Origin: a virus
Lineage: Duplodnaviria; Heunggongvirae; Uroviricota; Caudoviricetes
Length of the DNA stretch: 64,000 nucleotides
IMG/VR virus record: IMGVR_UViG_3300011339_000564
Span: 14,318-78,317 of that record
Strand: one strand, 5' to 3'
The number at the start of each line of letters is the position of its first letter. Within the stretch, counting starts at the first letter, position 1. The position numbers were made by a program, and so were the translations under genes. Below, piece by piece: positions 1,662 to 45,644 of this stretch. Below the pieces are notes generated by a model, which did not search any database, was not told where the DNA came from, and saw only the letters and a list, made by a program, of their open reading frames with translations.

Positions 1662-3919
1662 CAAATTCTCCGGAAATAGAAAACATTATCGAACAATCGA
1701 TTGAGTATGCCAAACAACGTAAACATCAATATGTTACAGTTGAACACTTACTTCTTGCATTAATTAATCATCCATCTTTTACTAAATGCGTAGTTGGCTT
1801 TGGCATAGATGTTGAGTCAATGTCACACGAAATCACTGGTTATTTAGATAGCTTACACGCTATTGTTTATACTGAAACTGAAGTAGTTCCACGCAAAACA
1901 AGTAGTTTAGAACGGGTTATGAATCGTTCTGTCACTCAGGTTCTATTCACCGGACGTAGACAAGTTACTACTATTGATTTGTATCTAAGTATTGCAAGTG
2001 AAGGTAACAGTCACGCACATTATTTCATGCTCAAATACGGTATGCAAAAGAATGAGTTTGTTGCGTACTGGCAAAAACACTATAAGAATGAAGGCGCCGG
2101 CAATCTTACTGAAAATCAAGCAGATGAAATTCTTGAAGAATATACTATTAACCTAAGTGAACTTGCTAGTCAAGGTAAACTTGAACCATTGATTGGTCGT
2201 GCAAAAGAACTTGATGATATTATCAATGTGCTTGCTAAACGATTTAAATCAAATGTATTGATGGTGGGTGATCCGGGTGTAGGTAAAACTGCTATTGCCG
2301 AAGGTCTTGCACAAATGATGCACGACAAACAAGTGCCTGAATTTTTAGAAGGTCATCAACTATATTCATTAGAAGTTGGTTCATTACTTGCCGGCAGCAA
2401 ATATCGCGGGGACTTTGAAGAAAAAGTCAAAGCCATTATCGATGCATTGAATACTAAAAAGAAAGCTATTTTATTCATTGACGAAGCACATACTATGCAA
2501 GGTGCAGGTTCAAGCTCCAATGGTAGTGTTGACTTTGCTAATATGATTAAACCAGCAATTACTAAAGGCACATTGAAAGTTATTGCTAGTACTACTTGGG
2601 AAGAATACTACGAAAGTTTTGAGAAGGATCGTGCATTAATGCGTAGATTCTATCGTGTCTCAATTGATGAACCAAGCAACGAATCTACTGTTCGAATTCT
2701 TTCTGGACTAAGCACACGATTGAATGACTTTCATAGTGTTGAAATTCAAGAAGATGCAATTAAAGCATCAGTTGAAATGTCAACACGATACATTCACGAC
2801 CGAAAAAATCCTGATAAAAGTATTGACTTATTGGATGCGGCTTGTGCTAAACAACGTGTTGCAGGTAATAAAGGTGCACATATTACTAAAGACTTAGTGT
2901 TTGACCAAGTAGAGAAGTTTACGGGAGTTCCTGCAGATAAGATGAAGGGTGATAATTTTGACCTTATCAATAACCTTGAGATTAATATCAAAGGTAAATT
3001 ATATGGTCAAGATGAAACCGTTCAGCAAGTGTTAGAACGTATCTATGTTAACTTTGCTGGTATCGGTAATGATACTAAACCAACAGGTAGTTTCTTGTTT
3101 TTAGGCCCAACAGGTACAGGTAAAACAGAATTGGCTAAGTTGTTAAGTAAGAACCTTGACATGCCATTGCTCAAATATGATATGAGTGAATACGGAGAAA
3201 AACATTCAGTATCTAGTTTGATCGGTCCGCCCCCTGGTTATGTTGGCTTCGGTGACAGTCAAGTCGGTGGTGGCCGTTTAATCAACGACTTAAGTAAGAA
3301 CCCACATGCTATCATGTTGTTTGATGAAGTTGAAAAAGCACACCCTGATATATTTAACATCTTCTTACAGATGTTAGACGAAGGTACTATTACAGGAAGT
3401 AATGGTAAGAAGGTTAACTGTAAGAATGCTATTATCATTATGACTAGTAACTTAGGTAGTGCCGATGGTGAGCGCAATAACATTGGTTTTGGATCACAAG
3501 ACAAGCAAGGAGAAGATGATAAAGCATTGAAAGAATTCTTTAAGCCAGAATTCAGAAATCGTGTTGATTTGATTTGCAAGTTTAACAAACTTGATAGCTT
3601 GGCTATTAAGAAAATTGTTATTAAGTTTACTGAAGATTTGAAAAAATCATTAATTGAAAAACACAATATCAATTTAGTATTGACAGAACCAGTAGTTGAG
3701 TATCTAGCTGAACAAGGGTATGACAAGAAAATGGGTGCTAGACCACTAGCACGTAAGATTGACGAATTGATTCGTGTACCACTGAGTAAAAAAGTATTGT
3801 TTGAACGCATTAAAAATGCTACTATTACTGCCAACATTGTTGGTGACACTATTGATTTTGCAGTGACACACAAATTAACAGCTAAGGTGAATGACGATGG
3901 CATTATTGAGGTCAGTTGA
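1658..3919 (+). CDS. clpA: ClpA-like AAA+ unfoldase
   Basis: Clp N-domain and two AAA+ modules (Walker A GDPGVGKT and GPTGTGKT). 753 aa with no ClpB middle domain. [11 protein letters not shown] aligns with the ClpA IGL ClpP-docking loop. ATGA overlap with the upstream J-domain gene. Confidence 0.85.
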
Positions 3920-5203: not shown

Positions 5204-6487
5204 ATGAAACAAATTGTCATTATGCCGGGAGGCTTTCATCCATTTCATGCAGGGCACGCCGCACTATATCAAAGTGCAGTGAAAGCATTTCCGAGTGCAG
5301 AAGTATATGTTGCCGCTACCAATGACACAAAAACAAGACCTTTCCCCTTTAATATCAAAGAAAAACTAGCAAAACTTGCTGGCGTAGCTCCTGGACATTT
5401 TGTACAAGTTAAAAGTCCTTTTAAAGCAGAAGAAATCACAAGTCAATATAATCCAGAAGAAGATGTATTAATTTTTGTGCGTAGTGAAAAAGATAGAACA
5501 GAACAACCTAAACCAGGTGGCACAAAGAAAGATGGTACACCTGCTTACTTTCAACCATGGACCGGTAAGAATTTACAGCCATTCAGTAAACATGCTTACA
5601 TTGCTTACTTACCAACTGTAGAGTTTGGACCTGGAATTCAGAGTGCGACTGAGATTCGCAACATGTGGCCTAAACTAAACGATAAGCGCAAGACTGCATT
5701 GGTTATGAGTTTATATCCGATAACACAGACAAATCCTAAACTTGCCGCTAACGTTGTTAAGATGTTAGATATAGGCATGGGTGAACGACAAGGTGTGGCG
5801 GAGGATAAAGAATCCGATCCAGTCACAAGTGCTGTATTAAATTTCTATAAGCCAGTAATAAATGATATCCACAAAGAAAAACTACCAGACTATGTTGACC
5901 AAGCTCGTGGATTGTTACAGAAAACAAATGATCCTGATATTCGTAGTAAATTAGTTGATATCTTTAAAAAGGGTAAAGAAAATCCATATATTCAAGGTGG
6001 CATTGTTACTACCGTTGGTGCAGTATTAGCCGGTGGTATATTAACTACAGCACAGAAGATGGGACTAAGCCCTGCACAAACTAACTTAGCATTACAAGCA
6101 ATATTGAATACAGTTATTCCTACAGTTGTTTCACGTATCAATGGTAAAAACTGGAGTGATACAATTAAGTATACATTAGCAAGTGCAGGTATAGGTACAG
6201 GTATTGCCGGCGCAAGTTTAGTAGAAAACGATCCTTGGGGAGATCAAGGTAACTTTGCAGGTGATCGACACGTTGATATTGGTGGAATTTTTACTAGACC
6301 TAAATTAGGTGTAGGTGATATGGTTAAAGTAAATGCAGGTCATTTCAAAGGCATCGGAGAGATATCAGAAATTAAAGGTGACCGTGCAGAAGTTTGGATG
6401 GACAGCTATGCTAAATCCTTCATGTTTGATTTATCTGACCTAGTAAAGTATATACCCGAATCCATAGATTACTTAGAAGAAAAATAA
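5204..6487 (+). CDS. HxGH nucleotidyltransferase domain fused to a Gly/Ala-rich hydrophobic region and a KOW-like C-terminus
   Basis: N-terminal MPGGFHPFHAGH (cytidylyl/adenylyltransferase HxGH signature), a central QGVAED motif, hydrophobic G/A-rich segments, and C-terminal VGDMVKVNAGHFKGIGEISEIKGDRAEV. Confidence 0.6.
   Translation: MKQIVIMPGGFHPFHAGHAALYQSAVKAFPSAEVYVAATNDTKTRPFPFNIKEKLAKLAGVAPGHFVQVKSPFKAEEITSQYNPEEDVLIFVRSEKDRTEQPKPGGTKKDGTPAYFQPWTGKNLQPFSKHAYIAYLPTVEFGPGIQSATEIRNMWPKLNDKRKTALVMSLYPITQTNPKLAANVVKMLDIGMGERQGVAEDKESDPVTSAVLNFYKPVINDIHKEKLPDYVDQARGLLQKTNDPDIRSKLVDIFKKGKENPYIQGGIVTTVGAVLAGGILTTAQKMGLSPAQTNLALQAILNTVIPTVVSRINGKNWSDTIKYTLASAGIGTGIAGASLVENDPWGDQGNFAGDRHVDIGGIFTRPKLGVGDMVKVNAGHFKGIGEISEIKGDRAEVWMDSYAKSFMFDLSDLVKYIPESIDYLEEK
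5789..5805 (+). repeat. Copy of the dispersed GC-rich motif CAAGGTGTGGCGGA(G/A)G (encodes QGVAE)
   Basis: CAAGGTGTGGCGGAGGA; one of six copies in the window. Confidence 0.8.
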
Positions 6488-7475: not shown

Positions 7476-8792
7476 ATGAATTTAAAAGAACTTGATTCCT
7501 TTCGCATCTCTGACGCTATTAGTTTCCATGACAAATTGAACCCTAAGTTATGGAATAATACACGGTTGCGTCCTGAAGTAAAACAACAACTATTAATAAT
7601 AGCAGAAGATTTTTTAGAAGAATTAGGTATTAGTGGATTAGATGTAATAGACATGACTGTATCTGGTTCTAATGCCGCATTTAGTTATACACCCAACAGC
7701 GACCTAGACTTACACATATTAGTTGATATGAGTAAGTTGCCAAATGATGAAGTTTACAGAGAATTATTTACAGCAAAAAAATCATTATACAATGACAGCC
7801 ACGACATAAAAATACACGGGATACCAGTAGAGTTATATGTACAAGACGCCAGAGAACCAGTCGTAAGTCTAGGTGAGTACAGTCTCACAAATGATAACTG
7901 GCTTAAAATCCCATCAAAACGCAGAGCCAATTTTGACCAAACCGCCACCAAGACGAAATATGAAAAGTTATTAACATTAATAGAGCTAGCCCTCAAATCT
8001 AGAAAATACAGTAAAGTAAGTAACATAGCTAAAACAATTAAAAGATATAGACAATCAGGATTAGATAAGGGTGGCGAGTTTGGTCCTGAAAATCTAGCAT
8101 ACAAAGCATTAAGAGCACAGGGTTACATTACTAAGTTATACGATTTGCGTGACAAGTTACATAGTGAGAAGTTAACTATTGAAACGATGTACCAGCCCAT
8201 AAACGATGACTATGATCCAAATGGTCCTCCTCCAGGTCCCGAGTTTAAACCAACTATGCCTAAAGGTACTGTTAAAGTAGACGTAAGTGATGTATATGAT
8301 TGGTATAAGTTAGGACAACATATTAGTAATCTTAAGGGTCTAGGTAAGCACGACTTTGGTAGTGGACCTCCTAGTACTATTTTTTCATTTGGTGATGAAG
8401 ATACAGAACACCAGTACATTAAAGATTTAGAGAAGACCGGATTAACGACAACTGATATTGATCCAGTTGATCCCAAGCAACCCAAGGGTATGAAGCGTCA
8501 GAAAGTTGATCCTACATATAACGTCAATGAATACAACACTATGCAATTTGCGGCTGAAAAAACACCAGCAACAAACCCATATGGTGGTCTTAAAGATAAT
8601 CAATTTCGAGGAAGTATGTCAGAAGCAAGTGGATATATACCTTCAGAAAAACAAAAAAATGATCCTCGTTTTAGTACAGCATTGACAGTGGATGTTCATC
8701 CTGATTCAATCAAAAAGAACGCAAAAGCATTTGGATGGCTCACTAGCAGAGCCGGAATCCCTCCTACAGCGAAAGCAAACGGCAAAATCTGA
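7476..8792 (+). CDS. Pol-beta superfamily nucleotidyltransferase domain protein with a CTS-like N-terminus and a disordered C-terminal half
   Basis: The start was moved from 7398 to the ATG at 7476 because the longer ORF runs through the terminator. VSGSNAAFSYTPNSDLDLHILVD matches the GS...DxD NTase signature. N-terminus is MNLKELDSF. Confidence 0.55.
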   Translation: MNLKELDSFRISDAISFHDKLNPKLWNNTRLRPEVKQQLLIIAEDFLEELGISGLDVIDMTVSGSNAAFSYTPNSDLDLHILVDMSKLPNDEVYRELFTAKKSLYNDSHDIKIHGIPVELYVQDAREPVVSLGEYSLTNDNWLKIPSKRRANFDQTATKTKYEKLLTLIELALKSRKYSKVSNIAKTIKRYRQSGLDKGGEFGPENLAYKALRAQGYITKLYDLRDKLHSEKLTIETMYQPINDDYDPNGPPPGPEFKPTMPKGTVKVDVSDVYDWYKLGQHISNLKGLGKHDFGSGPPSTIFSFGDEDTEHQYIKDLEKTGLTTTDIDPVDPKQPKGMKRQKVDPTYNVNEYNTMQFAAEKTPATNPYGGLKDNQFRGSMSEASGYIPSEKQKNDPRFSTALTVDVHPDSIKKNAKAFGWLTSRAGIPPTAKANGKI

Positions 8793-9162: not shown

Positions 9163-9942
9163 ATGCGTTTTACAGAAATATCAGAATCTACAACATCAGG
9201 CTCAGTATCTACTGTAGCAATGCCACTAGGCAAAACTCAAACACGTACTCAAGTATCTGGTTTAGAACCCGTGAAAAAAGTAATGGGCGGCACTGCTAAG
9301 AAAAAAGGTCCATATGGAAATAGTCTTACTGAAGGTGCTATGAAGCAACTTTCAATGGATCTTAAAGAGTTAAAAGACGAAGAATTCAAAAAGAAATATA
9401 ATATGACTAAGCAGGAAGCCCGTACTGAATTATCTGCAAAGCCTGAACCCATCAAAGAAGCAGAACTATCTGAAGATGATATCATATTAGTTCCAGGACA
9501 GGGACGCAAAATGAAAACTGGATTTGTACCGCATGGTCAAAGTCGTGTAGACCATGAAGTAGAAATGGCACGTAGTGATTTATTCAGTGCGGCAAAGAAC
9601 GCTAAACAAGTATATGAAATGATTCATAGTGTATCTGAAGATGAGGGTCTTGAGGGCTGGGTACAAGAAAAGATTATCAAAGCCAACGACTACCTAAATA
9701 CAGTACGTGAATACTTAGAAGGTAAACAAATTCAACAAGAAGCTAGTAGTCTTACATATGAAGGTAAGATTGACTTTGCCAAAAAGATACAAAAGAATGT
9801 AGATAAGAGTAACAAAGCAGTAGTAAAGACTAGAAAAGAAGTTGGTGCAAGAATTGCTGATATTGGTGCAGGCGGCAAAGAACACAATGTTAAAACTGAC
9901 AAAGCGTGGGACGATGCACAAAAAGCAAAGAAAGCAAAATAA
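9163..9942 (+). CDS. Hypothetical protein with a CTS-like N-terminus (candidate capsid-internal protein)
   Basis: N-terminus MRFTEISES. Charged and low in complexity. 259 aa. Confidence 0.55.
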   Translation: MRFTEISESTTSGSVSTVAMPLGKTQTRTQVSGLEPVKKVMGGTAKKKGPYGNSLTEGAMKQLSMDLKELKDEEFKKKYNMTKQEARTELSAKPEPIKEAELSEDDIILVPGQGRKMKTGFVPHGQSRVDHEVEMARSDLFSAAKNAKQVYEMIHSVSEDEGLEGWVQEKIIKANDYLNTVREYLEGKQIQQEASSLTYEGKIDFAKKIQKNVDKSNKAVVKTRKEVGARIADIGAGGKEHNVKTDKAWDDAQKAKKAK

Positions 9943-9943
9943 A

Positions 9944-12900
9944 ATGAGCAATATTCTACAAGGCTTAAACGAAACACAAAAACATGACGGTGTATTCTTG
10001 TTAACAGAATCTCGTACATACAAGTTATGGGAGAGTGCTGGACAAAAGATTAGTGAAGCACAACTAACTGCCGATCAGATTAATCAAATCTTTAAACAAG
10101 TTGAACAAGGTGCTACTGCCGCAGGTGGTAATCGTACAATGCTCGGTAAAGGTAAAGACGCAGCCGGCGCAGTAAAGCAAGCATATGATGATTTGGTGAG
10201 TAAAGCACAGAACTCAGGACCTATTAAAGGTGTTGATGCGATGTACGACAAAGCCGCCGAAAAATTAAAACAAGCAACTGGTGGCGATCAGGGTGTAATG
10301 AAATATGTACAGAAATATCGTGACTTTGCTAAAGAACACCCAGTAGCACAAGGTTTAATATATTCAGCATTAATTGCAGCCGCTGGTATCAGTGGTGCAG
10401 GTATTGGTGGTGCAGCCGCACTAGGTTTGTTTAAGATGGTAGACAAATTGTTACAGGGTGAGAAGTTTAGTACTGCTGTAGGTAAAGGCGTAACTACTGG
10501 TGCAATGGCTTATGGTGCAAGTAAAGTTGGTGATCTTTTCAAAGGTTCACCGCAAGGCGCACCTACTACTGCTGGATCAGACGCTACCGCAGGTGCGGCA
10601 CAAGATACATTGTCTGCGACTAGACAAGCAGTGGAAAAAGAAGCTATGGATGCCATTAAGTCTAGAATTGCCAATGGAGAAATAGCACCCGGCGATCAAG
10701 GTGCCATACGATATTTGGCATACAAAATGCTAGCTGGATCATGTATGCCGCCGCCGTCTATAGAAACTTCTGTAGAAAAATTAATAACACGATCTATGGG
10801 TGATGTAGGAACTAGCGCAACTAATACAGTGTCCGGCACATTGTCAGGTGTTACCGGAGAACAGATGGCTAGTCATCCTGCATACCAAGCAATGATTCAA
10901 AAGTTTGGCAATACACCCGGCGCTCGTCAGGCGGCTATGGCTGCTGCCAAGTCAGCAATTCTTAAGGGACAAGTCAATGAAAGTATCAATTTATCAGAAT
11001 CTCAAATCTTTCTATTGATAGGTAAGATTGTTGAACGTCAACGTAAACTTGACGAAGGCATCATGGATACACTTAAAGGCGCCGCAGGTAAAGCCGCCGA
11101 TTGGGCACAAACTAAAGGAACTAATTTAACAACTAAAGTTACTGCTGACAAATTATTACAAGCGTGGAAGAAAGCTGGTAGTCCAACAGATAGTTTAGAT
11201 GTTGCAAGCATTATTCAAAAAGCTGGTGTACCATCTGATTCAATCAAACAAGTATACACTACAATGCAAATACCTTTTGCAGGTGAAAAAGGTGCAGGTG
11301 CGAGTACAAAACGTAATATAGATGTTGATCCATCAAGTGTTGCACCAGCCGCTCCAACAAGTACACCCACTGCTTCTGCACCGTCAGCTACAGCAAATGC
11401 GCCGGCGGCAGATGCATCACAGCCTGCTACGGCCGCAACTGGCTCTTTAGCACAAGCACAAGAACTCATTGCAAAATTAGATCCAGAAACTAAAACAAAA
11501 CTTATATCAACATTGAAACAAGAGTTGAGTGTAGCTGAAAGTCGAATCAATGAATTATCTAATGAAAAATTAGGACAATACAAAAAAGCCGCAAGTGCTG
11601 ACGCTACTGCCGCTGACAAAGCAGGTGACTATAAGCGTGGTGATAAACGTTTCAGTGGTATTGTTCGTGCAACTAACAAACAGTTTGCTAATGATACTAA
11701 AAAACATGGTCAGCAAGGTGTGGCGGAAGGCTTAGAGCAATCATTATCGTCAATGGTAAGACAAGATCAGACTGAGCGGAATGAGTATGCAACCTTTGTA
11801 AAATCACAAGCAGGTGGTGATTGGTCCAAAGGGGCTAAAATGTATGCTCAACTCAAAAAAAGACCCATCGATGATATATTTGGTGATGCAATAAGATTAA
11901 ACCAGTTTATGAAAATGAAGTTTGATTTTGATAAATTTACCAATGAAGATTGGGACAATTATTGGTTGTTAGCACAGCATTGTGATAATAATCGTGACTT
12001 TCAAAAGAATGCTTTATCAATAATTAAAAAATATCAAGGTACAGATCATTCGCACTACAAATATCTATACGATAGAATCAGTATGGGTCTAACTGGTAAA
12101 CAGAAATACGGAACACAGAATATTAAAGAGCAAGGCGTGGCAGAAGGCTTCCCTCATGATGTTGACCATATGCCGGGTCCTGTGATTCGCAATGCTGATA
12201 TGACTACAGATAATGTCAAGACCAAAGACAAAGCAGAATGGGACAGAGCCACTGATAGCATCAACGCACGGGTGTTTGATGATATGAGTGAATTTCGCAC
12301 TGACAACAACGGTGAAACAGTTGTCGGTGATAGCGCAGTTTGGGCCAAGTGGGACAATGCTACACAAACAGGTTGGTTCAATGCCAAAGGTCGCCCATTA
12401 AAGCCTTGGCCTGTTAAAGAGCAAGGTGTGGCGGAAGGTGATGGGCCAAGATATATTGATAACATAATGAACCAGTATAAGGCAGGCTTGCCTGGCCAAA
12501 ACCCGGCGGCCTTATCTAAACCAACTAGAGCAGTTGATGCCAGAGGTCGCACACAAGAACAATGGGCACAATTAGTTAGGAGCAAGTTTCCGGGTGCTAA
12601 AATTACACAGGCTAAAATGATTGACGGGCCTATGCAAGCAACCTTACCTGATGGTAGAAAACTTGGATGGAAAAAAGTTGAACAAATTGATGAAATTATT
12701 GATCCTAGCACAAAGATGGCATGGGCATTACGCCACATCGCCGGGTTCCTTACTAGATTATTTCCTTACGCAGTGGGCGCCGGAACTTTGTGGGCAGCCA
12801 GTGGACTGTTGGCCCCACTAGTGGCTGCATCCGGTGGAGTGGCCGCGGCAATTTCTGCATTAGGCGGTTCAATGGGATCAGCTACAGGCGCGGCTGCAGG

Positions 12901-13795
12901 AGCAGTTGGCGGTGCCAGTATAATGCAAATTATTAAAAACTTATTTGCCGCAGACGAGAATAGTATACAAGCAGGAATTAAAAAGTGGGTAGAAAGACAA
13001 GTAGGTGACGAAGCCGATGTACAAGAATTTTTACTAACTCATGCCAAAGCCGCATATGACGGTAAACCTGGTTTCCGTTGGAGGGCTAAAGAGTGGCCTG
13101 TTAAATTAAGTAAAGATCAAGCAGAAGCATATTTAGAAAAGAAAGATAAATCTTGGCTTGATTATGAAAAGCAAAAAATAATCGATGCTGAAAAAGCGAA
13201 GGCTGAAAAAGATAAAGAAGGTATGATGGAAGAACAACTTGATGAACTAAATTGCTGGTCAGGTTACCATAGAGTTGCCGGCACTAAAGCAGGCTTTCCA
13301 GGTAGTTGTGCTAAAAATAAAACAAATGAATCAGAACATAAATGCCCACATTGCGGTGGCGAGATGGTTAGTGAAGAACTAATGAATGAAAAGAAAGATG
13401 CTTGCTACTATAAAGTAAAGAGCCGTTATAAAGTATGGCCAAGTGCTTATGCTAGTGGTGCGTTAGTTAAGTGCCGTAAGAGTGGTGCTGATAGCTGGGG
13501 CAACGGTGGAAAGAAGAATGAAGGTTCTATACTAGAAGGTATTAACCGAGCAGACGAAAGTTTGCATGATTGGTTTAATAAAGAAAAGTGGGTTCGCATG
13601 GATACTAAAGGAAAGATTAAAGGTCCGTGTGCTAGAGAACCAGGAGAAGGTAAACCTAAATGTTTACCTCAAGCAAAGGCACATAGTTTAGGCAAAAAAG
13701 GTCGTGCAAGCGCGGCTGCTAGAAAACGCAGAGAAGATCCCAATCCAGAACGTAGTGGTAAAGCCATCAATGTTAATACTAAAAAGAAAGACTAA
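9944..13795 (+). CDS. Giant modular protein (1283 aa), candidate virion-internal or ejection polyprotein
   Basis: Start set at the ATG at 9944, 1 nt after the upstream stop (the track start at 9842 overlaps the upstream gene). It has three QGVAEG motifs, an EGMMEEQLDELN motif, G/A-rich hydrophobic segments, an Ala/Pro/Thr low-complexity linker, and a Cys-rich basic C-terminus (CPHCGG...). Confidence 0.7.
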   Translation: MSNILQGLNETQKHDGVFLLTESRTYKLWESAGQKISEAQLTADQINQIFKQVEQGATAAGGNRTMLGKGKDAAGAVKQAYDDLVSKAQNSGPIKGVDAMYDKAAEKLKQATGGDQGVMKYVQKYRDFAKEHPVAQGLIYSALIAAAGISGAGIGGAAALGLFKMVDKLLQGEKFSTAVGKGVTTGAMAYGASKVGDLFKGSPQGAPTTAGSDATAGAAQDTLSATRQAVEKEAMDAIKSRIANGEIAPGDQGAIRYLAYKMLAGSCMPPPSIETSVEKLITRSMGDVGTSATNTVSGTLSGVTGEQMASHPAYQAMIQKFGNTPGARQAAMAAAKSAILKGQVNESINLSESQIFLLIGKIVERQRKLDEGIMDTLKGAAGKAADWAQTKGTNLTTKVTADKLLQAWKKAGSPTDSLDVASIIQKAGVPSDSIKQVYTTMQIPFAGEKGAGASTKRNIDVDPSSVAPAAPTSTPTASAPSATANAPAADASQPATAATGSLAQAQELIAKLDPETKTKLISTLKQELSVAESRINELSNEKLGQYKKAASADATAADKAGDYKRGDKRFSGIVRATNKQFANDTKKHGQQGVAEGLEQSLSSMVRQDQTERNEYATFVKSQAGGDWSKGAKMYAQLKKRPIDDIFGDAIRLNQFMKMKFDFDKFTNEDWDNYWLLAQHCDNNRDFQKNALSIIKKYQGTDHSHYKYLYDRISMGLTGKQKYGTQNIKEQGVAEGFPHDVDHMPGPVIRNADMTTDNVKTKDKAEWDRATDSINARVFDDMSEFRTDNNGETVVGDSAVWAKWDNATQTGWFNAKGRPLKPWPVKEQGVAEGDGPRYIDNIMNQYKAGLPGQNPAALSKPTRAVDARGRTQEQWAQLVRSKFPGAKITQAKMIDGPMQATLPDGRKLGWKKVEQIDEIIDPSTKMAWALRHIAGFLTRLFPYAVGAGTLWAASGLLAPLVAASGGVAAAISALGGSMGSATGAAAGAVGGASIMQIIKNLFAADENSIQAGIKKWVERQVGDEADVQEFLLTHAKAAYDGKPGFRWRAKEWPVKLSKDQAEAYLEKKDKSWLDYEKQKIIDAEKAKAEKDKEGMMEEQLDELNCWSGYHRVAGTKAGFPGSCAKNKTNESEHKCPHCGGEMVSEELMNEKKDACYYKVKSRYKVWPSAYASGALVKCRKSGADSWGNGGKKNEGSILEGINRADESLHDWFNKEKWVRMDTKGKIKGPCAREPGEGKPKCLPQAKAHSLGKKGRASAAARKRREDPNPERSGKAINVNTKKKD
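11714..11731 (+). repeat. Copy of the dispersed motif CAAGGTGTGGCGGAAGGC (QGVAEG)
   Basis: Contains the exact 16-mer core AAGGTGTGGCGGAAGG. Confidence 0.85.
12131..12148 (+). repeat. Copy of the dispersed motif (CAAGGCGTGGCAGAAGGC, QGVAEG)
   Basis: Two synonymous mismatches to the core. Shares the extended TTAAAGAGCAAGG context with the copy at 12422. Confidence 0.8.
12422..12439 (+). repeat. Copy of the dispersed motif CAAGGTGTGGCGGAAGGT (QGVAEG)
   Basis: Contains the exact 16-mer core. Confidence 0.85.
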
Positions 13796-13804
13796 AGGAC
13801 AATA

Positions 13805-14245
13805 ATGTTATCAGATAATCTAAAAGTACTTTTAGCTAGTACACAAAGTTTTGCTATTAAAACACAAAACTTTCATTGGAATGTTGAGGGGAGTAATTTT
13901 CCACAGTATCATGCATTTTTTGATACGTTATACGGTGATGTAAGTGCTACTATCGATCCTATCGCTGAATATATCAGAATATTAGGTGCTTACACACCCG
14001 GCAGTTTACAACGTTATGCTGAACTAAGTATCATTCAAGACCAAATCAAAATCCCACGTGCTCAACTAATGTTTGCTGAATCACTACAAGATTGTGAAAA
14101 AATGAGTGAATTAGTCGTTGCTATGTTTGACGAAGCAACAAACGAACGTCAGCAAGGCATTGCTAATTACATGGCTGAACTACAAGACCTATACGGTAAG
14201 AAAGCATGGTTCATTCGTTCTACATTGAAAACAGAACGTGAGTAA
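13805..14245 (+). CDS. dps: Dps-family ferritin-like DNA-protection protein
   Basis: KTQNFHWNVEGSNFPQYHAFFDTLY...IDPIAEYIRILG matches the Dps signature (fHWnv.G..F...H..f...y...D.iAEri..lG). Confidence 0.8.
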   Translation: MLSDNLKVLLASTQSFAIKTQNFHWNVEGSNFPQYHAFFDTLYGDVSATIDPIAEYIRILGAYTPGSLQRYAELSIIQDQIKIPRAQLMFAESLQDCEKMSELVVAMFDEATNERQQGIANYMAELQDLYGKKAWFIRSTLKTERE

Positions 14246-15515
14246 ATTAGAATTTACCCAGAAAGAATGGGAAAAGATAGAAAATAACGGGACTTATTGT
14301 CCCGGTTTATTTAACAGCAAATACATAGAAACTGACGGTGGACTGAGAGCATGTTGTGTTCAAGATTTAAAAGGTGAACATTATACAAATACAGAATCCT
14401 ATAACACCACTTCGTTAAAACAAGCCAGACAAAATTCATTATCAGGGATTAAAGATTCCAGTTGCGCTAGATGTTGGGAAAATGAATCATTAAACACCAG
14501 ATCATATAGACAAGGTCTAGTAGAGTCTGCTATTCACTGGAAAAGTAAAATCAAAGATAATATAAATGTTGACTATTCCATCACAGAACCCACCATAGAC
14601 TACTTAGACATTAGATTTGATAATATCTGTAATTTAAGATGTAGATATTGCAGTACTATTTTTAGTTCTAGTTGGAGACACGAAACTGAGTTACTAGAAA
14701 AAGAATTACCAATATTTAAATATATAAAAAGAAGATCAGTAGATACAAAAATATTGAATAGTGTAACCGATATTGACACGATATTAGCTGACCTTAGAAC
14801 AGTTAAAAAAATATTTTTTGCGGGTGGCGAGCCATTAGTAAACGATAAACATTATGAAGTGTTAGAATATCTAATAGATAATAATAGAACCAACATTGAA
14901 ATAACGTATAATACTAATTTTACAAACATTAAAAAAGTTATTCCTTATTGGAAAAAGTTTTCAAACATACACGTGGGTGCAAGTTTAGATGCAAATTATA
15001 AAAGAGGAGAATACATTCGTAAAAATCTCGTATGGGACCAGATTGTAGAAAATAGAAAATTAATGATTGCCGAAGTTCCTCATGTTCAATTTGAAATAAA
15101 TGCGTCAATGAGTATATTGAATGCGTATAATGTAGTAGATTTTCATAAAGAATGGATTAATGATAAATTAATTGGACCTTTTGATTTAACTGCATGGAAT
15201 TTTGTATCTAAACCTGAACATTATGATATTAGGAATTTACCTGACCATCATAAGATTAAATTAAAAGAAATATATCAAACTCATATTGATTGGTTAAACT
15301 CCCTCACATCAGGCAATGATATTAAGTTTAAAAGTAAAAATGATTCTAGTTTTGCTATTCAATCATATCAAGGTATAATTAATAGGTTAAATTTAAGTAG
15401 AAATTCATCTTTTGACAAATTTTGGGAATTTGACAAATGGTTAGATAATAATAGAGATGAAAACTTTTTTGATGTGTTTCCTGAGTATGAGGACTTTGCT
15501 AGATATTTTAGCTAA
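14238..15515 (+). CDS. Radical SAM enzyme with an N-terminal Cys-rich (SPASM/twitch-like) segment
   Basis: CNLRCRYC is a CxxxCxxC motif. An N-terminal YCPGLFNSKYIETDGGLRACC...SCARCW resembles a SPASM-type auxiliary cluster motif. GTG start overlapping the dps stop. Confidence 0.7.
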   Translation: MSKLEFTQKEWEKIENNGTYCPGLFNSKYIETDGGLRACCVQDLKGEHYTNTESYNTTSLKQARQNSLSGIKDSSCARCWENESLNTRSYRQGLVESAIHWKSKIKDNINVDYSITEPTIDYLDIRFDNICNLRCRYCSTIFSSSWRHETELLEKELPIFKYIKRRSVDTKILNSVTDIDTILADLRTVKKIFFAGGEPLVNDKHYEVLEYLIDNNRTNIEITYNTNFTNIKKVIPYWKKFSNIHVGASLDANYKRGEYIRKNLVWDQIVENRKLMIAEVPHVQFEINASMSILNAYNVVDFHKEWINDKLIGPFDLTAWNFVSKPEHYDIRNLPDHHKIKLKEIYQTHIDWLNSLTSGNDIKFKSKNDSSFAIQSYQGIINRLNLSRNSSFDKFWEFDKWLDNNRDENFFDVFPEYEDFARYFS

Positions 15516-37469: not shown

Positions 37470-37667
37470 ATGAACAAAAAAATTACAGAACTATGGGAAC
37501 AGGCCGCTCAACGAGATGACTTACTAGACGAAAAACGGTATGAGCATTTTGCTGAATTATTAATTAGAGATTGTGCAAAACAAGTTAATCATCTGGCTAA
37601 ACAAGGTGGCGGAACTTGGGGCGAAGTCATTCTAGAAAACTACAATATAAGTGTATATAAAAAATGA
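37470..37667 (+). CDS. Member of the small 'FAELIVREC' paralog family
   Basis: MNKKITELWEQAA...HFAELLIRDCAKQV. Divergent C-terminus. Confidence 0.55.
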   Translation: MNKKITELWEQAAQRDDLLDEKRYEHFAELLIRDCAKQVNHLAKQGGGTWGEVILENYNISVYKK

Positions 37668-41299: not shown

Positions 41300-41773
41300 T
41301 TATAGACCAATCTTGGGTGGATACATTGGGCCAGACTTTATTCGTTCACCACCGTCAAAGTAACTAATTTCTACTGGTAATTCTTTCCAGCCTAATCTAT
41401 GTGCAGCCATGATACGATGATTACCTTCGTTTACCCAGGCACTGCCATCATAGGCCACATTGATAAAAGGTTTGTATTCTTCACTAGAGTGTGAATGTAA
41501 TGGTAGCTTGCCGGTGTCCTTCATTATTTTCATAATTGCAATAAGATCACCTTGACGCACATTTTGTTGTTCGTTTCGCATACCGGGTATTTGTCTTAGT
41601 AAGTTAACAGGAATTTCAACTTTTCTGACAGTAGCAGTTGTCTTTCCCATGTAGGGCAAACCATTACGATCAGGACTTTTTTGCTTGGCATACGCAATAG
41701 CATCGTTTAGCCATTCCTCATTAGGCACATCAACACTAAGTGTTCCTTCAGTTATAAATTCTTTTGCTCTCAC
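41300..41773 (-). CDS. ParB/sulfiredoxin-fold domain protein with a CTS-like N-terminus
   Basis: N-terminus MRAKEFITEG. VEIPVNLLRQIPGMR...DGSAWVNEGNHRIMAAHRLGWKELPV matches the ParB N-terminal domain pattern (DG....eGnHR..Aa..lG). Confidence 0.5.
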   Translation of the reverse strand: MRAKEFITEGTLSVDVPNEEWLNDAIAYAKQKSPDRNGLPYMGKTTATVRKVEIPVNLLRQIPGMRNEQQNVRQGDLIAIMKIMKDTGKLPLHSHSSEEYKPFINVAYDGSAWVNEGNHRIMAAHRLGWKELPVEISYFDGGERIKSGPMYPPKIGL

Positions 41774-42444
41774 ATTGATCCTTTAGAATTAACAAACCAG
41801 GGGTCAACTATAACTAATTCTCCATTACTACGTTGCATGACATTTTCGGTGTGCAAGTCCCAACCAAATTTGTTTATTCTACCCGATTGATATAATAGTT
41901 TCATTACACTAAACAAGGTAGCATACGTCTTATAAAAAGTAACACCTTGCTGTGTCATTGCATTATCTATAAGTTTAGCCATTTTAGATGATATTGGGCT
42001 AGAGAAGAATTTCCAAGTTTCAGGATCAGTTAGTGAAGGTAAGATTTGTTGCCAAGTCTCACCTGTAACAGCATAGTCACTTAATATCCAGACCATTGCT
42101 TCTTCAACACTGTTCTTTTTAATAGGCTGAAGATGTTCCATGTCAATTTGTATGTAATCCTCACCGGCAATATCGATTGTATTCATTTCATTAAATATAG
42201 GTAAACAAGAAATCTCAGGATGATTTTCACAGAATTCGTAAAACTTTTTAAATACTTTTTCAGCGTGACCACTAGGATCATCTGGCATTAATATTTTAAT
42301 CACATGACTAGTATCTTTAGCCCATACTCTTGCATCAGCTCCGCTACCAATATGTTTGTAACCTAGTGATTTTAAATGCGCGGCAATTTCTTTGAAGGCT
42401 GGTCCTGTTGCAGCCTCATCTACTGCAAATTCATTGGCTCTCAT
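41770..42444 (-). CDS. Protein kinase-like (APH/choline kinase-like) fold protein with a CTS-like N-terminus
   Basis: N-terminus MRANEFAVDEA. IGSGADARVW (Gly loop), HVIKIL (Lys), DLHTENVM (catalytic loop) and LVIVDPW. Confidence 0.5.
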   Translation of the reverse strand: MRANEFAVDEAATGPAFKEIAAHLKSLGYKHIGSGADARVWAKDTSHVIKILMPDDPSGHAEKVFKKFYEFCENHPEISCLPIFNEMNTIDIAGEDYIQIDMEHLQPIKKNSVEEAMVWILSDYAVTGETWQQILPSLTDPETWKFFSSPISSKMAKLIDNAMTQQGVTFYKTYATLFSVMKLLYQSGRINKFGWDLHTENVMQRSNGELVIVDPWFVNSKGSM

Positions 42445-42623: not shown

Positions 42624-43174
42624 AGACTCTTACCCCAGCGTGTGTTAATCACATTCCAGTTGATAATCTTCCACTGTTCAGCCAAATACTTTTTCTTATC
42701 AGCACCGTAGTCTAATATCCACGCATGTTCCCACCAATCAACTAATAACAATATATCATTGCGTACTTCATGGTTCTTAATTGTTTTAATTTTACCATCA
42801 GTTGCTAAATATACCCACCCACTACCTTGTATCTTCATTGCTTCAGTTTCAAACTGTGACTTCATATTATCGTATGAGCCAAAATGTTTGTTAATAAAGC
42901 CCATCATGGGGCCGTTTGGATTGTTTTTATTTCTTACTTCACGGAACTGAGGGAACAATGTATTATGTAAGAATGCACCTGCATAGTTAAATTCTTTATC
43001 TCCGATATCTTTGTTATATCTTTCAGCATAGCCATGTGCTAACTTGCCATAGTGTAAGTCTATAGTGTCTACCGACAAAACCGGACTTAGTTCTTTTGGC
43101 TCAAAATTAAGCTGAATGATTTCTATATCTTGAGGTTTTGACTTATCCTCAAGTAACTGAATTAAATCACGCAT
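42620..43174 (-). CDS. sodB: Fe/Mn superoxide dismutase
   Basis: DTIDLHYGKLAHGY, FLHNTLF, FGSYDNMKSQF, GSGWVYL, LLLVDWWEHAWILDY and INWNVI align with SodB blocks. All four metal ligands are present. Confidence 0.8.
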   Translation of the reverse strand: MRDLIQLLEDKSKPQDIEIIQLNFEPKELSPVLSVDTIDLHYGKLAHGYAERYNKDIGDKEFNYAGAFLHNTLFPQFREVRNKNNPNGPMMGFINKHFGSYDNMKSQFETEAMKIQGSGWVYLATDGKIKTIKNHEVRNDILLLVDWWEHAWILDYGADKKKYLAEQWKIINWNVINTRWGKSL

Positions 43175-44955
43175 CAGTGTTTCAATAATAATGTAGAAAT
43201 GATGTTAGGATCGTTAGCACTGATATCACCTTCACCGGGTGCAACGATAACATTGTACTTCATACCGGCTGGTATTGATTTACGTTTAGCCATGTACTGA
43301 TTATAGTCTAATATAGAGTTGGCACTTAATCCATACTCTTTTGCAAGACGATTCTTTAGTTCAGGTAACTTATCAGGTTGTACTTGCCATTGGCCTTCTG
43401 ACCCCTTAACTAAGTTTTTCTTTTCGTCCTTAACTAATAAATCTTGGAACAAGTCATCTGGAACAATACGACTATTCTTAGTTTTATCTAAGTTAGCATC
43501 ACTTGCCTTAACTTGTTTCTCTTGTGATGTATGAGCACCTTCACTCCAATTGATAATAAAGTTAGGTGGCTTCTGACCTAATGCGGCACCAGCCATCTTT
43601 GTGTAAGCATAGAACTTAGTATCAGGATGCTTTGCAGCCATCTTTAATGCCAAGTCTAAATATTCTGGGCTGAAGAAGTCACCAGCATCATGCCAACGAA
43701 TAGTAGTTTGCCAACCTTTAGGGAATTTCTTATCACCCTTTTGACCAGCTTGTTCTTCTTTGCTAATCTCACTACTTAATTGATTGAAGAACCCGTCTGG
43801 ATCATTCAATAGATATGTTAATATTCTTCCGTCACTTTGCCATGCGTTCTTAAACTGAATTTTTCCGCCCTTCATAGCAAAACAATCTATTTTACATGAG
43901 CCTGCGCCCGGGCATGTATTAACAATGATTAGTTTATTTGTTTGTTCGTCTAGTGCAATACCAGTCAATGCCGCAAAGCCAACGTTGAAGAATTGTTCAA
44001 ACTCTCCGTTACTATGCTTCATCTTTTCGTTTTGCTTTAGTAATGATTTAGGGCGTTGTGACAATGTTTTCTTAACTGCATCCTCATCATATGTTGCACC
44101 ATCTGGACCTAAGTATTCAACTACACTACTACGGTGGATATAAGGCATTTTGTATCTATCTGTTTTTGTTTTACCAGATACATATTTTTCATTACCCTTT
44201 TTATCTACCTTAACATTACCTGCTTTGTCTGTATCAGGAGTACCAACAATACGTTTCATGTAATCTTGGAACTCATCGCCACCAAACTCACGGCTACTTG
44301 CTGGCAGTTTAGTTGCTTCTTCTAAGCCAGATAGTTTGCGAATTCTATCTAAGCCTTCCGCCACACCTTCATTTGCACTTTGACTAGCCAATTTATAAAT
44401 ATACGCAGTACCGTTGGGTAATAGATACGTAGTATAATTTCCTATACCCCTCTCACCCATTTGAGCCTGTTGAATTGTTATCATTTTTGCGCCGCGCGGC
44501 GTTGGGCCATCATTAGGTACCAGCATACCTTTATATTCTTTGCCTCCATGGTGCACAACTATACCAGTGTCGCTTCGTTCTACTTTTTCTGCTGTATCAA
44601 CATTTTGATTTGGCATCTGACCACCAGATTTTTCTGCACTGGCTTGAAATCCTTGTTGAGCCATTTGTTGTGCGGCACTAGGTGACATTTGGCCATCAGC
44701 ACCAAGACTAACTCTTGCGTGTGCAGAGCCAGCTGACCCTAACGCACCCATTGCACCTAATGCCATTGCACCTGTTGCGGCTGCTTTTTTCCAATTAATT
44801 TCGTCAAGTTGCTCTTCCGTCATACCTTCTTCTGATTCTTCATCGGGCATATCACCCGCTTTAGTAACGAATTGCTGAGGTGTCATAATTTGGATGCCAC
44901 TAGGTGCTCCAGGCATTTTTGGCTCTACGCCTTCGAATAGTTCTTTGAAATTCAT
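43174..44955 (-). CDS. Large modular protein with a CTS-like N-terminus, an internal signal-peptide-like segment and a Cys-rich C-terminal domain
   Basis: N-terminus MNFKELFEG. EGMTEEQLDEINWKKAAATGAMALGAMGALGSAGSAHA. One NEGVAEG motif. The C-terminal TCPGAGSCKIDCFAMKG...IRWHDAGDF...YAYTK recalls the phage GP88-type domain (from memory, unverified). Confidence 0.6.
   Translation of the reverse strand: MNFKELFEGVEPKMPGAPSGIQIMTPQQFVTKAGDMPDEESEEGMTEEQLDEINWKKAAATGAMALGAMGALGSAGSAHARVSLGADGQMSPSAAQQMAQQGFQASAEKSGGQMPNQNVDTAEKVERSDTGIVVHHGGKEYKGMLVPNDGPTPRGAKMITIQQAQMGERGIGNYTTYLLPNGTAYIYKLASQSANEGVAEGLDRIRKLSGLEEATKLPASSREFGGDEFQDYMKRIVGTPDTDKAGNVKVDKKGNEKYVSGKTKTDRYKMPYIHRSSVVEYLGPDGATYDEDAVKKTLSQRPKSLLKQNEKMKHSNGEFEQFFNVGFAALTGIALDEQTNKLIIVNTCPGAGSCKIDCFAMKGGKIQFKNAWQSDGRILTYLLNDPDGFFNQLSSEISKEEQAGQKGDKKFPKGWQTTIRWHDAGDFFSPEYLDLALKMAAKHPDTKFYAYTKMAGAALGQKPPNFIINWSEGAHTSQEKQVKASDANLDKTKNSRIVPDDLFQDLLVKDEKKNLVKGSEGQWQVQPDKLPELKNRLAKEYGLSANSILDYNQYMAKRKSIPAGMKYNVIVAPGEGDISANDPNIISTLLLKH
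44353..44370 (-). repeat. Copy of the dispersed motif (reverse complement GAAGGTGTGGCGGAAGGC, EGVAEG)
   Basis: Contains the exact 16-mer core on the minus strand. Confidence 0.85.
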
Positions 44956-45644
44956 TTCTTGTGGTTCCTAATAAATTGTTCTGCTAGCATTACTAATTCT
45001 TGCATTTGCTCAATAGATTCACAATGCCATCTACGTAAACTCTTATTAATATTGCTGTTTGGATCACGTGCTGTTTTAGCACTTGTACGATGTTTCTTCA
45101 TACCGCGCATTCTAGCGCAAAAACTAGCACGGCGCTTTGCGTCCTTGCTACCCTTTTTAATCTTGCTTGGCTTTTTAGTAACTGCTGTTTGAATCTTGCT
45201 ACCAGGATGACTACGGCGATAACTACTTACAGATTTTTTACTCATCCCACCTACACGTTTGTTATTGTGCTTTGACCAATTCTCGCCTTCCGCCACACCT
45301 TGACTTAATAATTTTTTAACAGATATTGGACCTGATTGATTTTCTGCACCGGTTAAAAATTCATTTCCCCATGGGGTTATCCAACCATCAAATTCAATAT
45401 CATTGCCTTGAACCATAATATCATTATTACCATCAAGGTTTTGATATCCATTCAACTCTTTGTACCATTTTCTTAATGATTGTAACTTGTATGGACCTTT
45501 GTAGCCTTGTTTTTTCAAAATAGAAATAATTTCCGGAGTAAATCCAACTGGTTGACCCTCAGATACTTTCTCTTTTTTGCTAATAGCAATAGCGGCTTGT
45601 TGTGCTGGATTTGCGGCTTCTGTTAAAATTTCTGTTATTCTCAT
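44952..45644 (-). CDS. Hypothetical protein with a CTS-like N-terminus and a basic C-terminal domain
   Basis: N-terminus MRITEILTEAA, one SQGVAEG motif, and a basic C-terminus RRASFCARMRGMKKHR...RRWHC. Confidence 0.6.
   Translation of the reverse strand: MRITEILTEAANPAQQAAIAISKKEKVSEGQPVGFTPEIISILKKQGYKGPYKLQSLRKWYKELNGYQNLDGNNDIMVQGNDIEFDGWITPWGNEFLTGAENQSGPISVKKLLSQGVAEGENWSKHNNKRVGGMSKKSVSSYRRSHPGSKIQTAVTKKPSKIKKGSKDAKRRASFCARMRGMKKHRTSAKTARDPNSNINKSLRRWHCESIEQMQELVMLAEQFIRNHKK
45285..45302 (-). repeat. Copy of the dispersed motif (reverse complement CAAGGTGTGGCGGAAGGC, QGVAEG)
   Basis: Contains the exact 16-mer core on the minus strand. Confidence 0.85.

Follow-up and report, generated by a model that had tools for sequence, protein, structure and literature searches.

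The 64,000-nucleotide window analysed here corresponds to positions 14,318 to 78,317 of the IMG/VR virus record IMGVR_UViG_3300011339_000564 (Caudoviricetes), part of a metagenomic contig of 77-78 kb. At 9944-13795 on its plus strand it encodes a protein of 1283 residues in which a short N-terminal leader and a conserved core are followed by an array of mobile modules. The joints between these modules, QGVAEG and EQ(L/I)DE, are the places where related phages have swapped, inserted or lost modules in frame. The open frame spans 9842-13795, and the ATG at 9944, two bases past the stop of the upstream open reading frame (ORF) 9163-9942, yields the 1283 residues; this start is backed by many homologues that begin MS[NS]IL. 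Megablast with 25 kb of the window found nothing close at the DNA level in cultured phages. Because its T4-type family-B DNA polymerase (PolB) is closest to that of Sinorhizobium phage Phosso (49% identity; 46% to Agrobacterium phage Atu_ph07 and 44% to Rak2-like jumbo phages), and because the same gene family is present on viral contigs of up to 346 and 524 kb, the source is assigned to the uncultured jumbo phages of the T4 superfamily. The features of the gene are listed below; L208 and L209 denote the loci of two homologous genes (P0002 and P0010), both of which keep the ferritin gene found downstream in the window.

9944..13795, plus strand: whole ORF, 1283 residues and stop; leader, conserved core and array of mobile modules
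9944..9973, plus strand: leader MSNILQGLNE, 10 residues, ending L-N-E (residues 8-10); resembles the T4 capsid-targeting sequence
9974..11296, plus strand: conserved core, residues 11-451, defined by homologue alignments; predicted all-helical
10340..10441, plus strand: first Gly/Ala-rich hydrophobic segment PVAQGLIYSALIAAAGISGAGIGGAAALGLFKMV, residues 133-166; many invariant columns of the core alignment
11297..11458, plus strand: Ala/Pro/Thr-rich low-complexity linker, residues ~452-505, seen in the sequence
11459..11728, plus strand: module LSNEKLGQYKK...DKRFSGIVRATNKQFANDTKK, residues 506-595; phrog_26930; preceded by an internal leader-like SVAES-RINEL
11714..11731, plus strand: joint 1, CAAGGTGTGGCGGAAGGC, encoding QGVAEG; homology with L208 and L209 stops at 11732
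11729..12145, plus strand: module X1, residues 596-734; alone in 49 other proteins at 71-91% identity
12131..12148, plus strand: joint 2, CAAGGCGTGGCAGAAGGC, encoding QGVAEG; two synonymous differences from the canonical form
12146..12436, plus strand: module X2, residues 735-831; alone in 25 other proteins
12422..12439, plus strand: joint 3, CAAGGTGTGGCGGAAGGT, encoding QGVAEG; L209 homology at 97.8% nucleotide identity begins inside it, at 12426
12437..12694, plus strand: module X3, residues 832-917; ends in the joint VEQIDE (EQIDE, 12680-12694)
12695..13246, plus strand: cassette GA2, residues 918-1101; second hydrophobic region and Lys/Glu-rich charged tail; ends EEQLDE
13247..13792, plus strand: basic Cys-containing C-terminal block, residues 1102-1283, defined by Pfam and PHROGs matches and cyanomyovirus homology

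A previous annotation made from the letters without database searches (the sequence-only reading) had described a modular protein of this length, and its description of the parts is borne out: the Gly/Ala-rich hydrophobic segments (residues 133-166 and 939-997), the Ala/Pro/Thr linker, the three QGVAEG sites (starting at 11714, 12131 and 12422), the EEQLDE motif that recurs with a Sec-like continuation in the protein encoded at 43174-44955 on the minus strand, and the CPHCGG motif with further cysteines and a basic tail are all present. It overlooked the nucleotide-level conservation of QGVAEG and the role of this element as a breakpoint of recent cassette exchange, which are taken up below.

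The leader is kept among homologues and has the (L/I)-x-E ending of the capsid-targeting type. Its sequence class also recurs inside homologues, where an internal NESSVMKGIVDES duplicates the N-terminal leader MSSIMKGIVDEG. The core is laid out as an N-subdomain (residues ~20-200), a variable insert (~200-340), which in some homologues is a LysM domain, and a C-subdomain (~340-450). The first hydrophobic segment and the second, which occupies 12758-12934 within GA2, peak at 1.7 and 1.9, respectively, on the Kyte-Doolittle scale (19-residue window); the cassette GA2 has a weak match to DUF2076. A database search recovered 399 relatives, which when mapped onto the query resolve it into three zones: the core (residues ~20-450) is common to ~115 of the best 120 relatives, residues 600-1080 to only two or three of them, and residues 1104-1279 of the C-terminal block to ~35. 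A profile of the core matched 973 clusters at E<=1e-3 and 470 at E<=1e-30 (50% identity clusters; 1.84 billion representatives) and none of 50,697 cultured phage records; tblastn with the core and with module X1 likewise found no match among cultured phages. Members of the family range from <300 to 1866 residues. The Pfam scan of the protein returned only sub-threshold matches to DUF2076 and DUF5872, the PHROGs scan only families of unknown function, and neither detected a peptidase family in the protein or in the neighboring proteins scanned.

Behind the linker at least seven modules behave independently of each other, none with an effector domain recognized by Pfam or PHROGs. The module at residues 506-595 takes the N-terminal position, right behind a leader, in many homologues. 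Module X1 in other proteins always starts directly behind a ...VAE joint or directly behind an N-terminal leader. In a search with residues 596-1101, X3 and GA2 (832-1101) were found together in 24 proteins and GA2 alone in 18. In other proteins these modules are joined to cytidine-deaminase-type, GNAT, ParB-like nuclease, DUF6321 and GP88 domains, among others; deaminase, GNAT and ParB-like nuclease partners are typical of packaged effector proteins (PMC5512222). The C-terminal block in turn consists of four small modules in a row, which recur in different orders in the cyanomyoviruses P-SSM2 and S-RIM2, there inside the gp13-gp16 structural block. In the window its order is CWSGYHRVAG...SCAKNKTNE, a CPHCGG mini-module, a DUF5872-like module, the internal leader-like stretch SILEGINRADE and a Lys/Arg-rich module ending AINVNTKKKD. 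The block has 8 cysteines, and its last 75 residues have an isoelectric point (pI) of 10.3.

Comparison with L208 and L209 locates the edges of homology precisely. L208 is 94% identical at the nucleotide level over 9753-11732, that is to the end of joint 1, and then unrelated until 13343. L209 matches the window over 10994-11732 (91%), over 12426-12694 (97.8%, beginning inside joint 3 and ending at EQIDE), over 13232-13330 (97%, beginning at EQLDE and ending at KTNE) and over 13335-14300 (99%); at KTNE (13330) it carries an extra cassette bounded by GVAE. The edges at 11732, 12426, 12694 and 13232 are in QGVAEG or EQ(I/L)DE joints, and a fifth, 13330, is at the KTNE site. Between joints 1 and 3 the window and L209 have different cassettes; the window lacks the extra L209 cassette at KTNE; and the second hydrophobic module, GA2, is a 537-bp insertion between two EQ(I/L)DE repeats, the second of which is the EEQLDE joint EGMMEEQLDELN at 13229-13246, whereas L209 has a single EQ(I/L)DE. 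The flanks, at 97-99% identity, mark these exchanges as recent. Short homology is known to suffice for T4-type recombination, and PeSLs (short intergenic elements comprising an early promoter and a stem-loop) mediate gene-cassette shuffling in T4-type genomes (PMC2839356, PMC4122927).

The QGVAEG joint is kept codon by codon as AAGGTGTGGCGGAAGG, despite the rarity of some of its codons: in these genomes GTG accounts for 18% of Val codons and GCG for 7% of Ala codons. Nearly every instance recovered through the peptide alone, in the window and in phages whose core proteins share only ~45-60% identity, reads CAA GGT GTG GCG GAA GGC. From local codon usage the probability of GGT GTG GCG GAA GGC, given GVAEG, is 0.0012, and the exact codons are nevertheless present in 16 of 28 distinct instances found by peptide (nominal binomial probability 4e-40, assuming independent copies). 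The exact 17-mer AAGGTGTGGCGGAAGGC is present in at least 120 IMG/VR stretches, where chance alone would give an estimated ~7. The first 80 loci contain 108 copies, each of which reads xGVAEG and 107 of which are in the frame of the longest ORF. GVAEG occurs 29 times in the ORFs of the window and 80 related loci, with 0.5 expected from composition, and the 17-mer encoding the joint has 6 matches in the window at <=3 mismatches, with 0.04 expected from shuffles. Of 71 variants that differ from the 15-mer by a single mismatch, 42 are synonymous (29% expected), and the peptide is therefore also under selection. Third positions changed 0, 8, 5 and 2 times in GGT, GTG, GCG and GAA, respectively, as opposed to 27 times in the final GGC, and hence a nucleotide core of ~16 nucleotides is constrained. 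The EQLDE joint, on the other hand, varies freely at synonymous sites. A literature search found nothing relevant on QGVAEG or GVAEG in a phage context. The anatomy of the protein and these nucleotide-level observations are solid, and they are surprising.

Three other explanations of the repeat were considered and rejected. It is not a CRISPR-like or other non-coding repeat array, as the element invariably occupies long ORFs and keeps to their frame. Nor does it mark internal translation starts behind a Shine-Dalgarno-like joint, there being no consistently placed start codon. Assembly chimeras at the repeat are improbable, as the pattern recurs in >100 different viral contigs and 16-18 nucleotides is shorter than the usual assembler k-mers; single contigs may still be chimeric. 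A further locus, L037, has a single ORF (2-2323) with seven canonical GVAEG joints separating modules of 52-80 residues, without the core domain.

At the protein level the joints and the leaders follow one grammar. All module boundaries in the protein bear [V/L/I]-x-E, as QGVAE/G or EQ(L/I)DE/ (a slash outside brackets marking the boundary), and protein-level homology with close relatives ends at ...QQGVAE/, ...SVAES/, ...EEQLDEL/, ...VEQIDE/ and ...KNKTNE/. Immediately before the core, homologues with upstream modules mostly read [VILMF]-x-E-[GSAT], whatever the upstream module, as judged by eye with no count or chance test; the residues seen there include QGVAEG, KGVNEG, KVSES, KVEET, NITES, IGMTEG, DLAEG, KGIVDES and QGLNES. 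X1 follows QGVAE in dozens of proteins, but in P0160 it stands directly behind the leader MRATEFITE/ and in P0142 and P0146 behind MRATEFIVEGISE/; GA2 directly follows the leader MKIKDLLIE/ in P0169 and P0170. As the same modules occur either behind joints or directly behind N-terminal leaders, joints and leaders are interchangeable. The N-termini of the family fall into the classes MS[NS]IL.G[LI]..E, M[KR]..EF[ILV].E and MI..DLF, and a start of the form MRAxEF[ILV]xE heads 56 distinct genes in the fetched loci, with ordinary synonymous variation. In the T4 internal proteins the capsid-targeting sequence is MKTYQEFIAE (PMC8442874), which the MRAxEFIxE class closely matches; T4 Alt begins MELITELFDE and T4 gp24 MAKINELLRE.

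Seven proteins of the window are headed by such leaders, namely the 1283-residue protein, both of its upstream neighbors and all four genes of the block at 41770-45644 on the minus strand. Those other than the 1283-residue protein and a superoxide dismutase described further below are:

7476..8792, plus strand: upstream neighbor, 438 residues from the ATG at 7476, leader-like MNLKELDSF; weak nucleotidyltransferase match
9163..9942, plus strand: upstream neighbor, 259 residues, leader MRFTEISE at the N-terminus
41770..42444, minus strand: protein-kinase-like protein, leader MRANEFAVDE; phrog_15752 (T7 gp0.7 type), 4e-11, and weak Kinase-PolyVal match
43174..44955, minus strand: companion of 593 residues, leader MNFKELFE, GP88 domain after joints; canonical 17-mer at 44353-44369 (NEGVAEG)
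44952..45644, minus strand: companion of 230 residues, leader MRITEILTE, joint SQGVAEG, basic DUF6321 module; canonical 17-mer at 45285-45301

The kinase-like protein is a candidate for a packaged and injected host-takeover enzyme. The set of three QGVAEG sites in the sequence-only reading stands but is incomplete, the copies in the two companions and a decayed one at 5790-5806 having been missed. The decayed copy, QGVAED (AAGGTGTGGCGGAGGAT, 3 mismatches), is in the cytidylyltransferase-like protein encoded at 5204-6487 on the plus strand, suggesting that a joint of this kind also served to build an enzyme that is not part of the cargo. The MNLKELDSF protein keeps its place upstream of the core gene in L009 (5245-7287) and L010, where it has a C-terminal KQGLAEA joint and an extra module.

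Some of the modules that follow joints begin with export signals. In the 593-residue companion the EEQLDE joint, EGMTEEQLDEIN, is directly followed by the Sec-type WKKAAATGAMALGAMGALGSAGSAHA with an AHA end, and in P0027 a Sec-like signal stands right behind QGVAE/. One module of L037 begins GSLEEMNRRGFLKGLAGAGAALAAGGAIA, in which a Tat signal significant in Pfam starts five residues past the joint, and L136 has a Tat signal arranged likewise; in such cases the signal peptides begin 3-8 residues past the joint. Tat signal peptides work at the N-terminus of a precursor, and their presence behind joints therefore argues for release at the joint, as supportive rather than statistical evidence.

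The genomic neighborhood of the gene in relatives was examined by comparing the T4 head proteins with all ORFs of the related loci (phmmer). T4 gp21, the prohead protease, matches ORFs in 13 of these loci, with E down to 2e-19, which adjoin portal and major capsid protein (MCP) genes. In L021, L028, L045, L068, L071 and L082 the region of gp20, gp21 and gp23 is 5-8 kb downstream of the orthologous gene. The order there is the core gene, a leader-bearing Gly/Ala-rich protein, a protein of 790-1040 residues, the gp20 portal, a protein of ~80 residues, an acidic scaffold-like protein, gp21 (E ~1e-19), a gp22-like protein and the gp23 MCP; the gp23 match itself is seen only where the locus extends that far (L028, L071 and L082), and L028 is exceptional in having the Gly/Ala-rich and 790-1040-residue proteins upstream of the core gene. 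In L013 the gp17 terminase gene is directly upstream of the orthologous gene, and other genes bearing GVAEG adjoin gp23, gp21, gp17 or gp18. The capsid proteins of relatives themselves have L-A-E/A or L-V-E/T ~25 residues before a conserved VIRR segment, in the region equivalent to that of the L-T-E/A site of T4 gp23.

The ~80-residue protein between the portal and the acidic scaffold-like gene starts M[IL]L.EFIYF (L028 13940-14182, L071 7480-7722, L082 7994-8242 and others); it is at the position of T4 gp67/gp68, with an N-terminus in the same leader style. Just upstream of the core gene there are small GIY-YIG-like ORFs (..GFVY.ITN...YIGKK.., identified by eye) in L021 (1493-1927), L045 (498-947) and L068 (9039-9467), possible homing endonucleases with the potential to promote recombination nearby.

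Taken together, these observations suggest that the protein is a capsid-targeted, protease-processed polyprotein of injected head cargo, whose joints double as in-frame recombination sites, a reading to which we would assign a probability of roughly 0.6. Under this proposal, the leader MSNILQGLNE would bring the precursor into the prohead scaffold, in the way that internal proteins IPI-III and Alt of T4 are brought there by their capsid-targeting sequence, and the gp21-type prohead protease of the phage would cut behind the Glu of the [V/L/I]-x-E sites. Cuts are predicted after E10, E595, E734, E831, E917 and E1101, with E532 and E1205 as further possible sites; the new N-termini would be T11 (TQKHDGVFLLTESR), G596 (GLEQSLSSMVR), G735 (GFPHDVDHMPGPVIR), G832 (GDGPR), I918 and L1102. 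About seven pieces would be released, namely a helical core of ~60 kDa with a glycine-zipper-like hydrophobic hairpin, three small modules, the second hydrophobic module and the basic Cys tail, and they would leave the head together with the DNA. The predicted C-terminal pieces are basic (pI 8.9-10.3), whereas the core, like two further modules, is neutral or acidic. The hydrophobic pieces, which bear LysM in some relatives, may have the host envelope as their site of action, and the basic Cys pieces may act on DNA. Since the joint is both an exchange point and a predicted cut site, new module combinations would arrive with their cut sites already in place. It is conceivable, though this is offered tentatively and as the less probable view, that AAGGTGTGGCGGAAGG has become a site dedicated to the in-frame exchange of cassettes, comparable to an integron acting at the protein level, by which giant T4-related phages shuffle the modules of their injected cargo and which couples recombination and a proteolytic signal in six codons; with the same reservation, each new combination could then be packaged via one leader and released as separate proteins.

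The sequence-only reading had taken V-A-E/ and L-D-E/ for T4-type prohead-protease sites. Comparative evidence, in the form of the gp21 homologues of the lineage, the leaders resembling capsid-targeting sequences and the exchange of joints for leaders, now favors that assignment, with cleavage itself still a prediction. Its further suggestion that processing creates some fragments with new hydrophobic N-termini is supported by the individual Tat and Sec-like cases, with no overall enrichment, as will be seen from the counts given next. The roles it proposed, in an ejection channel and in DNA binding, are conjectural.

Several points weigh against the injected-polyprotein proposal. The T4-type prohead protease and the location in a head module are shown for the lineage and not for this genome: T4 gp21 has no match among the ORFs of >=50 residues in the 64-kb window, the head module of this phage being outside it, and the gene is flanked in the window by chaperone genes and genes of unknown function on one side and by Dps, radical-SAM and PolB genes on the other. 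This location is weak counter-evidence, as the genes for the T4 internal proteins and alt are dispersed too. The residue at P3 of T4 sites is by the textbook Leu or Ile, and the Val found at this position in QGVAEG is atypical. The codon-level conservation of the joint exceeds what is explained by a protease site alone, and recombinational copying of the joint would also yield the 4e-40 excess. Hydrophobic or signal-like starts are not enriched behind joints overall (1.0%, versus a background of 1.4%). Sequence comparison of the core profile with PDB entries gave only chance matches (E >= 0.18), and the AlphaFold2 models of the core (all-helical, pLDDT 54) and of the C-terminal 182 residues (pLDDT 41) are both too poor to use for structural comparison. 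Finally, packaging, cleavage, ejection and the function of each piece are what we infer from sequence.

An alternative that we regard as unlikely is that the protein is an uncleaved multidomain protein in which QGVAEG and EQLDE are flexible linkers kept as short-homology recombination joints, with no protease involved. The nucleotide-level conservation and the exact breakpoints can indeed be explained without a protease, the joint has the richness in Gly and Ala that is common in linkers, and its cleavage is a prediction. However, joints that are variable at the DNA level (EQLDE, KVSES, NITES, GIVDES), like the leaders, still keep [VLI]-x-E, and synonymous variants of QGVAEG are over-represented. 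Moreover, N-terminal leaders stand in for joints before the same module, and Tat signal peptides, which are N-terminal by function, follow joints.

Still less probable is a polyprotein that is cut in the infected cell by another protease and never packaged, its pieces being sent to the membrane or periplasm of the host to serve, for instance, in superinfection exclusion, in the control of lysis or in remodelling of the envelope. Such a role would agree with the Sec and Tat signals and hydrophobic Gly/Ala segments right behind joints, with the LysM domain of some homologues and with the non-structural genes around the gene in the window. Yet the leaders match T4 capsid-targeting sequences, the orthologues are inside the terminase-portal-protease-MCP block, and the protein and the neighboring proteins scanned have no other protease domain.

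We consider it very improbable that the frozen 16 nucleotides act as an RNA or translation signal, whether as a ribosome pause (Shine-Dalgarno-like AAGGUG/GGAAGG with the rare GUG-GCG), a recoding element or a peptide-release element. The much lower variability of the third positions of GGT, GTG, GCG and GAA than of that of the last GGC, the retention of the rare GCG and GTG codons, and the constant sense strand and frame of the element would all fit such a signal. Against it, the motif has no C-rich stretch to pair with its G-rich run (by inspection) and the Rfam scan found no match in the window; no start codon is consistently placed downstream; the upstream peptide context varies, unlike that of 2A-type signals; and recombination accounts directly for homology breakpoints that fall exactly at the element. 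A tail protein, such as the tape measure given as an alternative by the sequence-only reading, is scarcely credible, for although the core is predicted to be all-helical, hydrophobic segments are present and some homologues have a LysM as a potential peptidoglycan-binding domain, a family length of <300 to 1866 residues is unsuited to a length ruler, the orthologues are beside terminase, portal and protease genes and not tail genes, T4 gp29 as query had no match in the ORFs of either the window or the related loci, and the N-terminal leader is of the capsid-targeting type.

Several known systems offer partial parallels. Like T4 IPI-III and Alt it has an N-terminal leader of ~10 residues ending [L/I/V]-x-E, and like the T4 internal proteins it belongs to a T4-superfamily phage with a gp21 homologue in the lineage and has diverse, fast-evolving cargo that shares only the leader, some pieces being basic (PMC8442874, PMC3012670, PMC12373910). 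The T4 internal proteins, in contrast, are encoded by separate small genes and cut once, whereas here many cargo modules share one frame with internal sites (L037 has as many as 7), conservation of the internal joint extends to its nucleotides, and cleavage is predicted from sequence. The ejection and inner-body proteins of phiKZ-like phages, processed by the gp245 protease in SPN3US, are similar in that a giant phage has many head-internal proteins cut behind Glu by a T4-related prohead protease (PMC5694885), and their propeptides sometimes have several sites (PMC5694885, PMC7411985, PMC10052503). These phages are, however, of another lineage with A/S/G-x-E sites, whereas the consensus here has V/L/I at P3, often within a full QGVAEG; their propeptides exceed 100 residues, unlike the short T4-like leaders seen here; and neither cassette-type modularity nor a nucleotide-frozen joint has been described in them.

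Polyvalent proteins (Iyer et al. 2017) are likewise large phage proteins of many unrelated modules that are predicted to be packaged and injected, and they share with the present family partner modules such as ParB-like nuclease, deaminase, GNAT and PolyVal-type kinase domains (PMC5512222). They comprise two to fifteen distinct conflict-related domains per polypeptide, frequently with an in-built peptidase (PMC5512222). Pfam and PHROGs scans of the protein described here detected no Zincin-like MPTase or other in-built peptidase, a fixed short joint separates its modules, and most of these have no recognizable enzymatic domain. What sets the present system apart from the T4 internal proteins, the phiKZ-like and the polyvalent systems is the combination of a polyprotein with a six-residue joint, the interchange of joint and leader, and conservation at synonymous sites together with cassette exchange.

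With respect to recombination the closest analogues are the PeSLs and the internal-protein loci of T-even phages, in which short conserved sequences flank exchangeable cassettes and the breakpoints between close relatives are inside those sequences (PMC2839356, PMC4122927). A PeSL is, however, an intergenic early promoter and stem-loop of ~100 bp that moves whole genes, whereas the element described here is 16-18 nucleotides long, inside coding sequence, and moves protein modules; it keeps to one frame and strand and has no self-complementarity (by inspection), so that PeSLs are analogues only.

Certain cyanomyovirus proteins encoded between gp15 and gp16 (PSSM2_123 of P-SSM2 and Np111112_101 of S-RIM2) resemble the C-terminal part of the protein: encoded inside a structural block, they have its basic Cys modules, one DUF5872-like, one DUF6321 and two more, but in rearranged order, and the junctions between them (SVVEEG, FVNEG, KVEEG) are V-x-E-G-like. 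They differ in their length of 271-349 residues and in having neither the core domain nor a canonical QGVAEG. Among the cyanomyovirus homologues listed, one record labels the homologue a virion protein. The two genes (L001 3983-4798 in P-SSM2, L002 3950-4999 in S-RIM2) each have four small basic modules in a different order, and their products may be small polyproteins of the same kind. With membrane-inserting ejection proteins of the type of P22 gp7/16/20 and T7 gp14/15/16 the comparison is confined to the two hydrophobic Gly/Ala segments and to the LysM of some homologues.

Injected phage proteins are an important and poorly mapped layer of the arms race between phages and their hosts; in T4 all three internal proteins are inhibitors of restriction systems (PMC12373910). 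If the injected-polyprotein reading is correct, dozens of cargo modules, recognizable from the sequence alone by a leader and a six-residue joint, are carried by a group of giant phages that is abundant and entirely uncultured, and candidate injected effectors could be listed directly from metagenomes, with kinase, nucleotidyltransferase-like, deaminase, GNAT and ParB-like nuclease domains and signal-peptide pieces as the module partners. The joint is also a rare case of a coding sequence that is constant at synonymous sites and marks exact points of recent module exchange, by which modular protein evolution through short-homology recombination becomes directly testable. The leader-plus-joint grammar could serve to load foreign proteins into phage heads.

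The remaining contents of the window include a chaperone pair, a Dps-like ferritin, radical-SAM proteins, a DNA ligase, a superoxide dismutase and the family-B DNA polymerase; the tRNA scan found no tRNA gene in it. The chaperone pair, at 858-3919 on the plus strand, is a DnaJ-like gene directly followed by a ClpB/ClpA-like double AAA+ ATPase (phrog_4871, 1e-234). The ferritin gene (13805-15515, plus strand) is directly 3' of the polyprotein gene in the window, L208 and L209, and is followed by a radical-SAM gene in the window and L209, the L208 contig stopping past the ferritin gene. The superoxide dismutase of the leader-bearing block (42620-43174, minus strand) is of the Fe/Mn type (Sod_Fe_C, 4e-24), with the N-terminus MRDLIQLLE. 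A Band_7/SPFH-family protein is encoded at 62875-63672 on the plus strand, and a QueE-like radical-SAM enzyme at 37664-38512 on the plus strand (5e-53) hints at 7-deazaguanine DNA modification.

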